A DNA stretch of 64,000 nt from a virus (lineage: Duplodnaviria > Heunggongvirae > Uroviricota > Caudoviricetes): IMG/VR virus record IMGVR_UViG_3300006143_000285; one strand, written 5' to 3'. This document shows positions 53,241 to 55,590 of this stretch, one piece after another. The position numbers and the translations under genes are program-made. The notes beneath the pieces are model-generated. The model did no database searches. It saw only the letters and a program-made list of their open reading frames with translations, and was not told the DNA's origin. Numbering within the stretch: the stretch's first letter is position 1; each line of letters starts with the position of its first letter.

Positions 53241-54755
53241 ATGTCGCAAGAAGCAATTTTGCTTACCGATGGCTACAAGTTAGACCATCGAAGACAGTAC
53301 CCAAAAGGGACTGAAAGAGTGTATGCCAACTGGACACCACGCAGCCACACCCATTATCCGGAGGCTAAAGATGGTGCTGTGGTATTTGGCATTCAGTATT
53401 TTATCAAGGAGTACCTCATTAAACAAATAAATGAGGAATTCTTCGCAAAACCTAAAGACCAAGTAATTGATTTATGGACTCGACGCATCAATACATTCTT
53501 GGGTCCAGACAATCAAGTAGGTTCTGAGCATGTAGCAGCTCTCCATGACTTAGGTTATCTTCCGCTACGAATCAAAGCACTTCCAGAAGGCTCTCTTTGT
53601 CCAATTCGTGTTCCAGCTCTCACAATCGTTAACACTAAGGACAAATTTTTCTGGCTCACCAACTACTTTGAAACCCTCATCTCAACAACTTTGTGGCTCC
53701 CGATGACATCTGCAACCTCAGCTCGTTTATACAAGCAAGAGTTGGTCCGTCACGCAATCAAGACTGGTTTTGTTACTATGCCCGGTCTGGATTTCTTGTG
53801 CCACGATTTTTCAATGAGAGGCATGGCCGGTGTCGAAGCTGCTGTGATGTCGGGAATGGGTCACATGACTTCTTTTACCGGTAGTGAAACAATTCCAGCG
53901 ATTGCTGCAATTGAGAAGTATTATAACGCTGATGCTTCAAAGGAACTGATTGCCGGAACAGTGCCAGCTACCGAGCATTCAGTTATGTGTGCCGGTGGAA
54001 AAGAAGATGAGCTGGAAACATTCCGCAGACTCATCACCGAAGTATATCCCAGCGGCTTTGTCTCGATTGTCAGCGATACTTGGGATTTCTGGAAAGTGAT
54101 GACAGAATATCTCCCTCAGTTAAAAGACATCATCGAAGCTCGTGATGGACGTGTAGTAATTCGTCCTGACAGTGGAGATCCGGTTGACATTATATGTGGC
54201 TTAGACCCTGAAGATGTCAAGGAAATGACTTTCCAAGAAATTGCAGAAAACGAAGCTGTCATCAAAGGTGCATATGAAATCCTTTGGGAAATTTTCGGAG
54301 GAACAGTTAATACTGCTGGCTATAAGGTGCTTAATCCTAAGATTGGATTGATTTATGGCGACTCCATCACTCTTGAACGTCAGAAGGAGATTTATCGCAG
54401 ATTAGAAGCCAAAGGTTTTGCTGCAACCAATCTTGTGCTTGGCGTTGGCTCATTTACTTATCAGTTTAAATCTCGCGATTCTTTAGGCTTTGCAATGAAA
54501 GCCACTTGGTGTCAAGTCAATGGTGAAGGACGTGAAATATTCAAGGACCCCAAAACAGACAATGGCGTTAAGAAGTCCCTCAAAGGGTTAATTTGTATCA
54601 AGAAGGACCAGATGGGTAATTTCTATGCCATCGACCAAGTATCAGCCGAAGTTGAAGCAACCGGTGAACTACAAACAGTCTTTGAAGATGGCAAGCTGCT
54701 TAAAGACTGGAGTCTATCTGAAATCCGAGATAACGTAAACAATACAATTCGATAA
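53241..54755 (+). CDS. nicotinamide phosphoribosyltransferase-family enzyme (NadV/NAMPT-like; candidate Namat of an NAD+ reconstitution pathway)
   Basis: 504 aa. N-terminus LLTDGYKLDHRRQYPKGTERVYANWTPRSH is canonical for NAMPT, and the length fits. Confidence 0.8.
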   Translation: MSQEAILLTDGYKLDHRRQYPKGTERVYANWTPRSHTHYPEAKDGAVVFGIQYFIKEYLIKQINEEFFAKPKDQVIDLWTRRINTFLGPDNQVGSEHVAALHDLGYLPLRIKALPEGSLCPIRVPALTIVNTKDKFFWLTNYFETLISTTLWLPMTSATSARLYKQELVRHAIKTGFVTMPGLDFLCHDFSMRGMAGVEAAVMSGMGHMTSFTGSETIPAIAAIEKYYNADASKELIAGTVPATEHSVMCAGGKEDELETFRRLITEVYPSGFVSIVSDTWDFWKVMTEYLPQLKDIIEARDGRVVIRPDSGDPVDIICGLDPEDVKEMTFQEIAENEAVIKGAYEILWEIFGGTVNTAGYKVLNPKIGLIYGDSITLERQKEIYRRLEAKGFAATNLVLGVGSFTYQFKSRDSLGFAMKATWCQVNGEGREIFKDPKTDNGVKKSLKGLICIKKDQMGNFYAIDQVSAEVEATGELQTVFEDGKLLKDWSLSEIRDNVNNTIR

Positions 54756-54756
54756 T

Positions 54757-55590
54757 ATGCGAGTACAAGAAATAAATCTTATCAATCCTGATAAGGGCTC
54801 AATCAAATATCACATTGTCGAATTTCCTGATAGCGAAAAACATATCGTTATCGACAGTGAAATCGACCACAAAAAGCATACACTCATCATTACACGCATT
54901 GCAAATGCGGATGATTTGTTCATTCTCATGCAGCTTGGTGACATTCTTAACCGACATGGAGTCACCATTTCACTCTACATCACATATCTGATGGGTATGC
55001 GAATGGATCGCGTAGTTTCATTCAATGAGGCGTTCAGTCTGAAGTTGGTAGCAGATGTCATTAACAGCATCAAGCCAATTCGAGTTACACTGGTGGAAGC
55101 TCATTCCAAAAAAGCAGTCTCACTTATCAACAACTGTGATTGTCAATATGCAAATGTCGCCTTTGTAGCTACCGCTGACTACTACTGCTTCCCAGATGCT
55201 GGAGCTATTGAGCGTTATGCTCATCAGTTCAGTCATTCCCCTGAGCGTCCTTCTGACAAGATAATCCTTTGCAGTAAGGAGCGTGATCCTGAGACCGGCC
55301 AACTCTCTGGATTCAAAATCCTCAACCCAGAAGTTTACAAAGGTGGCTCTATCTGCGTGGTCGATGATCTTTGCGATGGTGGCGGCACATTCGCTGGTAT
55401 TGCTGAGAAACTTCGTGAAATCGCCCCAGATGCCTTCCTCAAGGTGTATGTTACCCACATGGTGAACCCCAAGGGCATCATCACTCTTGCAGAGCACTTC
55501 GATGAAGTGGAATTCTCCGATTCCTACGCCGACTGGAATCTCACAGATCTTCCAGACAATGTAAAATGCAACAAAAACTGGAGCAAATGA
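54757..55590 (+). CDS. ribose-phosphate pyrophosphokinase (Prs)-like enzyme (candidate ADPR-pyrophosphate synthetase, Adps-like)
   Basis: PRPP-binding loop CVVDDLCDGGGTFAGIAEKL. Prs N-domain pattern LYITYLMGMRMDR (compare the ...YARQDR pattern of canonical Prs). Shorter (277 aa) than canonical Prs. Start is 1 nt after the NAMPT stop. Confidence 0.65.
   Translation: MRVQEINLINPDKGSIKYHIVEFPDSEKHIVIDSEIDHKKHTLIITRIANADDLFILMQLGDILNRHGVTISLYITYLMGMRMDRVVSFNEAFSLKLVADVINSIKPIRVTLVEAHSKKAVSLINNCDCQYANVAFVATADYYCFPDAGAIERYAHQFSHSPERPSDKIILCSKERDPETGQLSGFKILNPEVYKGGSICVVDDLCDGGGTFAGIAEKLREIAPDAFLKVYVTHMVNPKGIITLAEHFDEVEFSDSYADWNLTDLPDNVKCNKNWSK

Follow-up and report, generated by a model that had tools for sequence, protein, structure and literature searches.

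We analysed a stretch of DNA of 64,000 nucleotides, hereafter the window, from a tailed virus recorded in IMG/VR as IMGVR_UViG_3300006143_000285. Two adjacent genes on its + strand, namat and adps, very probably constitute the NARP1 pair of a Bacteroides phage resembling phage BS-TP1, a reading in which the enzymatic activities, the substrate preference and the defences countered are deduced from sequence. A preliminary description of this region had already proposed NARP1, and we support it on five grounds set out below: the residues of the Namat clamp, the donor and acceptor residues of Adps, the absence of the alpha11-alpha12 module, the missed Prs cut-offs and relatives catalogued as NARP1. 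Both open reading frames (ORFs) and their tight coupling were also as described, with exact coordinates and a single base between the stop codon of the first and the start codon of the second (cgaTAAtATGcga, TAAtATG).

53241..54755, + strand: namat (ORF1), 504 aa; predicted nicotinamide ADP-ribose transferase-type protein, Nampt-like, second enzyme of NARP1
54757..55590, + strand: adps (ORF2), 277 aa; predicted ADP-ribose pyrophosphokinase-type protein, PRPS-like, first enzyme of NARP1

The Namat-type and Adps-type genes

Firstly, we assigned ORF1 to a branch of its family. It matches the Pfam families NAPRTase (E 4.9e-38) and NAMPT_N (E 1e-10), and scores 563 bits against NCBIfam PRK09198, whose cut-off is 405. 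Among all PDB sequences the top match is the Namat of SPbetaL1 (9W5X/9W5W; E 3.5e-160, 537 bits), which these entries hold with nicotinamide and with NAD+ bound (PMC12774641); human NAMPT reaches 244 bits. In pairwise comparison ORF1 is 52.6% identical to the Namat of SPbetaL1, 54.2% to that of FADO (deletion of the FADO gene sensitises the phage to DSR2; Osterman et al. 2024) and 75% to the Namat of the crAss-like phage cr85_1, against 31% to both human NAMPT and the KVP40-like Nampt of K575, which is of the NARP2 type. The blastp scores divide likewise (508-535 bits with SPbetaL1 and FADO Namat, 206-228 bits with K575 Nampt and human NAMPT), and the phage homologues overall range from 75% identity down to ~28%. 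Mapping ORF1 by alignment onto the ligand contacts of the SPbetaL1 Namat structure, we found that the contacts to nicotinamide, nicotinamide mononucleotide (NMN) and phosphate are kept at D10, Y12, F190, S191, R193, A243, R308, D310, G373, D374, R412 and D413, and that the nicotinamide-stacking aromatics, the ATEHS motif and R308/D310 (equivalent to Arg306/Asp308) of the catalytic core are all aligned and kept. The clamp helix of Namat has the consensus GSX-phi-X-phi-X-phi-TRD; ORF1 reads GSFTYQFKSRD, with the adenine-stacking aromatics F405 and F409 at motif positions 3 and 7 and Lys at the third phi. In human NAMPT (GSGGGLLQKLTRD) and KVP40-like Nampt (GMGGGLLQQSDRD) these aromatics are absent and Gly, Gln or Lys stands in their place. 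By sequence, ORF1 is a member of the Namat branch and presumably prefers ADP-ribose pyrophosphate (ADPR-PP) to phosphoribosyl pyrophosphate (PRPP), and to call it a canonical NAMPT-family enzyme, as had been done, was imprecise. For another pair of PDB entries, 9KE8/9KEO (443 bits to ORF1), a literature search found no origin; as it has no clamp aromatics (GAQTYQRNTRD), it was dropped as a Namat reference. The Namat of cr85_1 (locus L001:4352-5872) is annotated as two coding sequences of 51 and 448 aa; tblastn aligns it continuously with residues 3-503 of the window protein, which suggests that the record splits the gene wrongly or contains a sequencing error.

Secondly, we compared ORF2 with PRPP synthetase (PRPS, Prs) and with Adps. 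The protein, which reads VVDDLCDGGGT at residues 201-211, matches phrog_619 (E 1.4e-56) and remains under the gathering scores of both Pribosyltran and Pribosyltran_N in Pfam and under the NCBIfam cut-offs for Prs (51.4 against 113 bits for TIGR01251, 54 against 296 bits for PRK00934); its identity to E. coli Prs is 25.6% (E 1e-5). A hidden Markov model (HMM) made from 11 Adps sequences, with the clade of ORF2 left out, gives ORF2 175.5 bits and E. coli Prs 130.4 bits. In the 2026 structures of ICP1 Adps, ADP-ribose (ADPR) spans the sites that hold ADP and ribose-5-phosphate in PRPS, and ATP is held by a remodelled pyrophosphate (PP) loop and a beta-hairpin (PMC13586617); we checked the numbering of that paper on the ICP1-like phage VMJ710, where 19/19 named residues agree. 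The ADPR acceptor residues Phe18, Arg87, His121, Asp161, Asp212, Asp213 and Asp216 of ICP1 correspond to F23, R82, H116, D147, D203, D204 and D207 of ORF2. Phe92 of ICP1 is Val87 in ORF2, and the differing positions (F92, V195, C197 and F223) vary family-wide. On the donor side, ORF2 has the Adps-type beta-hairpin KxRDxxTG, and its hairpin lysine K174 (in CSKERDPETGQL), invariant in 16/16 aligned Adps, is the counterpart of SPbetaL1 K162 and ICP1 K185, the essential lysine of Adps (Osterman et al. 2024; PMC13586617). The PP loop C206-D207-G-G-G-T211-F212 fits the pattern C-D-G-x-x-[ST]-F, the same columns of E. coli Prs reading I-D-T-G-G-T-L, and F212 aligns with the Phe lid over the ATP adenine in ICP1 Adps. 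A shortened Prs homologue carrying this motif had thus been recognised correctly, but its description as PRPP-binding does not stand, as DDLCDGGGT is the PP loop for the phosphates of the donor ATP (PMC13586617). ORF2 also lacks the C-terminal alpha11-alpha12 module of PRPS: the alignment stops short of the C-terminus of E. coli Prs and the model shows no helix past residue 247. Loss of this module is, according to its authors, the defining signature of the Adps family (PMC13586617). The AlphaFold2 model (predicted local distance difference test 88.6, predicted template modelling score 0.85) has the PRPS of E. coli, T. thermophilus and human as top Foldseek matches (TMq 0.75-0.80), which predicts a two-domain PRPS-like fold. 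Profile searches of Adps against Prs and a structure prediction were the checks that the preliminary description had proposed, and both agree with its reading, the first by the Adps score and the missed Prs cut-offs, the second by a PRPS-like fold, the family-conserved ADPR-contact residues of ICP1 Adps being kept in the alignment. ORF2 is, on these alignments, an Adps-type protein and not a true Prs, and would pyrophosphorylate ADPR. Most Adps homologues are without a precomputed Pfam domain.

Thirdly, we examined the company that the two genes keep. A Namat homologue adjoins adps in 29/30 related Adps loci from IMG/VR, so the pairing is not due to chance; the published association of Adps with Namat is 97%, and NARP1 is present in 4.3% of sequenced phages (Osterman et al. 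2024). The nearest relatives of ORF2 lie in the crAss-like phages cr85_1, cr111_1, cr126_1 and DAC15/17 and in Prevotella Lak megaphages, and cr85_1, DAC15/17 and Lak are catalogued both for an Adps with Namat nearby (Table S1) and for an Adps-associated Namat (Table S2; Osterman et al. 2024). A megablast search with 53241-56306 found no near-identical DNA among GenBank phages, so that no sequenced phage is closely related to this one in its DNA. The exact ORF2 protein recurs in 67 blocks of a public assembly collection, the longest carrying contig measuring 111,476 bp; adps is therefore intact and circulating.

The operon and its sponge candidate

The pair forms the first two genes of a four-gene operon, co-transcription being presumed from the layout. 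The remaining features are the following.

55587..56306, + strand: gene 3, three-domain sponge candidate (N-terminal domain, Sequestin PF21825, Tad2 PF11195)
56303..56554, + strand: gene 4 (orf83), small hydrophobic protein of 83 aa, phrog_38535; final gene of the operon
56574..56617, + strand: intrinsic-terminator-like hairpin and T-run, closing the operon
53173..53240, + strand: intergenic leader of 68 nt, weakly indicated as a possible promoter region
52837..53172, + strand: conserved upstream ORF of 111 aa, which travels with namat
16014..17960, + strand: NAD-dependent DNA ligase, outside the operon, given for context

The junctions of the operon read, in order, TAAtATG, ATGA and ATGA, the last of these being the overlap of the start of gene 4 with the stop of gene 3, and gene 3 has an alternative in-frame start at 55566. 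The hairpin at 56574-56607, a stem of 15 pairs (6 of them GC) that encloses a loop of 4 and is followed by TGTTTTACGA, is the strongest terminator-like site within 52400-56800. In the leader, TTGACA at 53181-53186 and TGAATTTG at 53194-53201 were read by eye; the latter differs by one mismatch from TAnnTTTG, the Bacteroides -7 consensus. A sigma-70 promoter scan gave no excess over shuffled sequences (7 found, 8.2 expected) and is uninformative for Bacteroides promoters. The upstream 111-aa ORF, which has no match in Pfam, NCBIfam or PHROG, precedes namat at 93-100% identity in loci L005, L008 and L099, and at 32% in L102. An Rfam scan of the window returned tRNAs only.

The predicted role of gene 3 is to sequester immune signals derived from ADPR, and possibly cyclic dinucleotides as well. 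It scores 33.4 bits against PF21825, the Sequestin family, where the Pfam cut-off is 24.8, and the corresponding helical hairpin is modelled at residues 68-132. PF21825 proteins are sponges for 3' cyclic ADPR (3'cADPR), and the Tad2-Sequestin combination is the commonest Tad2 fusion (bioRxiv 10.1101/2025.07.12.664507). R71, E75, Q113 and R127 (numbering of the 239-aa protein) show little or no variation among 36 homologues, and have a spacing similar to that of R8, E12, Q47 and R61 of SequestinA, a match by spacing and not by alignment. In the Tad2 domain, four of the five residues of the glycocyclic ADPR (gcADPR) site of HgmTad2 are kept (W21, N22, S90 and D93) and T92 is replaced by Ala; at the cyclic-dinucleotide site S47 and F70 are kept, R31 is replaced by Gln and N85 by Asp. 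The domain has a long insertion as in HgmTad2, shorter by 5 residues in the alignment. HgmTad2/AcrIIA7-type proteins are known from Bacteroides phages (PMC10680739). Bacteroides possess TIR-STING NADases activated by cyclic GMP-GMP (cGG), which are a plausible target. Residues 1-66 of gene 3 (55587-55784) form a conserved alpha/beta domain ahead of Sequestin and Tad2, found in a large family of gut-phage proteins of ~238 aa; no resemblance of this domain to Tad2, to Sequestin or to a Pfam family was detected, and it may be a third ligand-binding module.

Gene 4 matches phrog_38535 (E 6.6e-26). In L100 and L101, where no sponge gene intervenes, its homologue comes directly after adps, and in L005 and L099 it comes after the sponge gene; this family tracks NARP1 in three lineages. 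In L008 (JGI 3300006217), namat and adps are identical to those of the window and the sponge gene is 89% identical; after the sponge gene, another gene of 220 aa (L008:11735-12397) replaces orf83 and the tape-measure gene. This arrangement suggests that a recombination boundary lies at the sponge gene's 3' end.

The phage and the position upstream of the sponge gene

The backbone genes of the window include those for a portal of the Mu type, a protease of the ClpP type and a tape-measure protein; the terminase shares 62% identity with its counterpart in Bacteroides phage BS-TP1, which has a genome of 111.7 kb and B. salyersiae as host. By these genes the phage resembles BS-TP1 and is not a member of the Crassvirales; a crAss-like identity, first assumed from the best Adps and Namat matches, was ruled out by the Mu-like portal, the ClpP protease and the BS-TP1-like terminase. 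BS-TP1 encodes a homologue of gene 3 (gp86, 49% identical), and its complete genome contains neither namat nor adps. This distribution fits NARP1 being accessory cargo in BS-TP1-like phages.

Another gene of NAD+ metabolism occurs in the same position in relatives. BS-TP1 gp96 (L013:19764-20318, - strand) resembles NMN adenylyltransferase (NMNAT): in NCBIfam it matches NMNAT models best (PRK01153, E 1.3e-13), in each case under the cut-off. In sister contigs whose flanks are syntenic with the window, a gp96 homologue of 181-184 aa (PF01467) takes the slot of namat-adps directly beside the Sequestin-Tad2 gene, as at L129:10001-11270 (ERR13262019_2782) and in L023-L035, with no Nampt nearby. The NMNAT-like gene abuts the sponge gene in 10/79 IMG/VR loci, and namat or adps is present in 0/10 of these; in relatives, it was never found together with namat-adps within 6 kb. 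Between the 79 loci with a gp96-type gene and the window or its flank extensions there is no shared DNA. The slot is occupied by NARP1 here and by a stand-alone 181-aa NMNAT-like gene in sister lineages, BS-TP1 keeping that gene ~5 kb away. It is possible, if doubtful, that BS-TP1-like Bacteroides phages exchange counter-defence cargo directed at NAD+ in the position just upstream of the sponge gene. Were the NMNAT-like gene a one-gene counter-defence that restores NAD+ or modifies ADPR signals, its pathway would differ from NARP1, NARP2 and NARP3, and the NARP1-sponge operon would be one form of a modular island against TIR/SIR2.

Further features were noted in and around the window. Directly upstream of the operon, 49039-52822 contains 20-21 tRNA genes, including one for a tRNA-Phe whose anticodon, AAA, is unusual (51419-51494), and the array is broken by a Band_7/SPFH lipoprotein-like gene at 49698-50522. 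At 41923-43068, an rve-family transposase gene (HTH_29 and rve/rve_3, 381 aa) lies in a GC peak (0.48 against ~0.42), has no counterpart seen in the BS-TP1 annotation and is likely an insertion sequence inserted into the phage genome. A reverse transcriptase gene (RVT_1, 418 aa) at 36439-37695 is followed by 1.3 kb (37696-38999) without an ORF of at least 90 aa. We considered a diversity-generating retroelement here; no direct repeats of at least 40 nt occur in 30000-41500, and it is probably not a classical element of this kind. At a comparable position, BS-TP1 gp79 carries a second-rank phrog_1423 annotation as reverse transcriptase. Some assemblies of the window phage (L005, L011 and L014) have group II intron-type maturase/reverse transcriptase genes (GIIM and RVT_1) just downstream of the terminase and a 340-aa gene, in L005 at 19288-20685 (- strand), ~0.3-1.7 kb past the 3' end of the window.

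Interpretation and known systems

Several points weigh against reading the pair as NARP1. Its gene order, namat before adps, is that of the Bacteroidota-phage clade and the reverse of that in all validated systems and in distant relatives. The validated Adps of SPbetaL1, FADO, Bas63 and ICP1 are just 27-32% identical to ORF2 (E 1e-19 to 7e-24). A single ligand contact of ORF1 is changed, Asp215 to Glu216, and a D215A mutant of Namat loses activity ~8-fold (PMC12774641). The TRD of the clamp helix reads SRD, with Ser411 as the equivalent of Thr398, and the clamp loop (SCL), SHTHYPEA, has Thr37 at its third position, where Arg, Lys or Tyr is usual, then His and Tyr. In addition, SPbetaL1 Namat also makes NMN from PRPP in vitro (Osterman et al. 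2024), and our scan for NMNAT spans the 64-kb window and ~12 kb of extra flank out of a genome of ~111 kb.

The last two points would suit classical salvage, in which ORF2 is a true Prs producing PRPP and ORF1 a Nampt producing NMN, with NAD+ completed by an NMNAT of host or phage, as in NARP2. Database annotation of both proteins follows this scheme, and the closest cultured relative, BS-TP1, encodes the NMNAT-like gp96. We nevertheless consider it very unlikely. ORF2 falls well short of the Prs cut-offs (51-54 bits against 113-296) and has KxRDxxTG, CDGGGTF and no alpha11-alpha12; ORF1 groups with Namat (53-54% identity) over NARP2-type Nampt (31%), and its aromatic clamp is absent from the human and NARP2-type enzymes. 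On these grounds the alternative of a plain NAMPT with an authentic Prs is disfavoured, in line with the preference for NARP1 expressed earlier. No cytidylyltransferase/NMNAT or Nudix domain was found in any window ORF of at least 90 aa, two NMNAT-like proteins used as tblastn queries on the window gave a best E of 0.37, and the ~12 kb of flank is likewise without NMNAT; the earlier remark that no NMNAT is visible in the window is thus borne out. An NMNAT gene elsewhere in the genome had been named as evidence for salvage: it is absent from the scanned sequence, but this test is weaker than it looks, since relatives carry an NMNAT-like gene, sometimes in the same slot. In those relatives that gene replaces namat-adps, and a published survey found no phage with both NARP1 and NARP2 (Osterman et al. 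2024).

A second alternative accepts the chemistry of NARP1 and sees its benefit in general NAD+ housekeeping for replication, not in immune evasion; we judge it highly improbable. The phage does encode an NAD-dependent DNA ligase, which carries the Pfam domains DNA_ligase_aden, DNA_ligase_OB, DNA_ligase_ZBD, HHH_5 and BRCT and is 55% identical to BS-TP1 gp50. NAD-dependent ligases consume NAD+ and release NMN and AMP, and not ADPR. The ligase therefore has no mechanistic link to NARP1, which consumes ADPR and cannot use NMN and AMP; of the argument previously built on this gene, its identity is confirmed by the domains and the link to NARP1 is not. NARP2 lifts NAD+ even without a defence system, but NARP1 requires free ADPR, the product of immune NADases, and ADPR-PP is found in Bas63 infection only with SIR2-HerA present (Osterman et al. 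2024). The pair moreover shares its operon with a Sequestin-Tad2 anti-signalling protein, and its absence from BS-TP1 fits accessory cargo. The ligase is flanked by a KilA-N/ANT antirepressor-like gene (14816-15985) and a 195-aa gene of the tyrosine-recombinase family (18097-18684), and in BS-TP1, too, the ligase gene is followed by this short recombinase gene (gp51); the antirepressor and recombinase genes hint at a temperate or formerly temperate lifestyle.

Thirdly, the reversed order, Glu216 and the clamp changes (third SCL residue Thr, TRD to SRD) might mark a pair that has decayed or been neofunctionalised, with a different acceptor or donor or with lost activity. This is extremely unlikely. 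SETIP (containing Glu216) and GS[FY]TYQ[FY]KSRD are fixed in ~20 related loci spanning 56-100% identity, with strong conservation of the neighbouring residues. The clamp loop, 1-2 residues longer here than in validated Namat, reads SC[HRK]Y[FY]PEA in clade relatives and is variable family-wide. That the Glu216, SRD and clamp-loop changes are clade-wide argues for function, though not for a particular specificity, and the Glu216 and KSRD variants look like a trait of the clade, not decay. Glu retains the carboxylate for the hydrogen bond to the amide and Ser the hydroxyl of Thr398, and many independent assemblies contain the two ORFs in intact form. The clade-wide Glu for Asp in the nicotinamide pocket could mark altered base specificity. 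NARP3 was dismissed, the window having no PnuC-like or NadR-like gene.

As a NARP1 pair, the two genes would act as follows. Host TIR, SIR2 or SEFIR NADases would split NAD+ into ADPR and nicotinamide; Adps (ORF2) would move the beta,gamma-pyrophosphate of ATP to ADPR's distal ribose, giving ADPR-PP; and Namat (ORF1) would swap the pyrophosphate of ADPR-PP for nicotinamide, giving NAD+ directly, with NMNAT unneeded. Upstream of these events, the Sequestin-Tad2 sponge would soak up immune signals and damp the activation of NADase effectors. The operon may thereby act on two levels, blunting effector activation and repairing the NAD+ pool if effectors fire.

The evidence supports well that this is a new example of the known NARP1 counter-defence, which leaves the understanding of NARP1 unchanged. 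With it, NARP1 would reach a second lineage of Bacteroides phages abundant in the human gut, one that is not crAss-like; in this lineage Pfam-based annotation misses Adps. The combination of NAD+ rebuilding with signal sequestration in one operon predicts real pressure in Bacteroides from NAD+-depleting immunity of the TIR/SIR2 type, such as Thoeris or TIR-STING CBASS. The pattern of presence and absence (NARP1 here, none in BS-TP1, an NMNAT-like gene in sister contigs) offers a natural experiment on the contribution of each module, and bears on the design of phages for defence-rich gut strains.

Compared with the validated NARP1 systems (SPbetaL1, FADO, Bas63 and ICP1; Osterman et al. 2024; PMC12774641; PMC13586617), the window has the same two families, adjacent and co-oriented. 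K174, R308, the aromatic clamp of Namat, the acceptor residues of Adps, the donor site of PP loop and beta-hairpin and the absence of the PRPS C-terminal module are shared. The differences are that namat comes first, that Adps identity is low, that Glu stands for Asp215 and SRD for TRD, that the longer clamp loop has Thr third, that the host is a gut Bacteroides and that a sponge gene shares the operon. The pairs of the crAss-like phages (cr85_1, cr111_1, cr126_1 and DAC15/DAC17) and of Lak, known from genes, belong to the same clade, with Namat at most 75% and Adps at most 51% identical; they share the order namat-adps, the 1-nt spacer and the SETIP and GS[FY]TYQ[FY]KSRD signatures, but lie in another virus backbone, with no Sequestin-Tad2 gene beside the pair. 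NARP2 (Nampt and Nmnat, Vibrio phage KVP40) and NARP3 (PnuC-like and NadR-like, Bas30) also restore NAD+ against depleting defences. NARP2 uses Nmnat with a PRPP-preferring Nampt, whereas the window has a Namat-type homologue and no Nmnat; NARP3 relies on a transporter of nicotinamide riboside together with a NadR-like enzyme, neither of which is in the window. Gene 3 shares the PF21825 and PF11195 architecture of the Tad2-Sequestin fusions (bioRxiv 10.1101/2025.07.12.664507), and differs from these and from HgmTad2 in its extra 66-residue N-terminal alpha/beta domain, in Ala for T92, Gln for R31 and Asp for N85, and in its place in a NARP1 operon. The mycobacteriophage DyoEdafos, whose NARP1 contains an inserted RyDEP glycosidase (bioRxiv 10.64898/2026.05.28.727677), likewise couples the neutralisation of cADPR-type signals to the rebuilding of NAD+, and is a precedent for signal-targeting proteins within NARP1 loci. 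RyDEP hydrolyses 2'/3'cADPR to linear ADPR that feeds NARP1, whereas gene 3 of the window is expected to sequester its signals and not to convert them.

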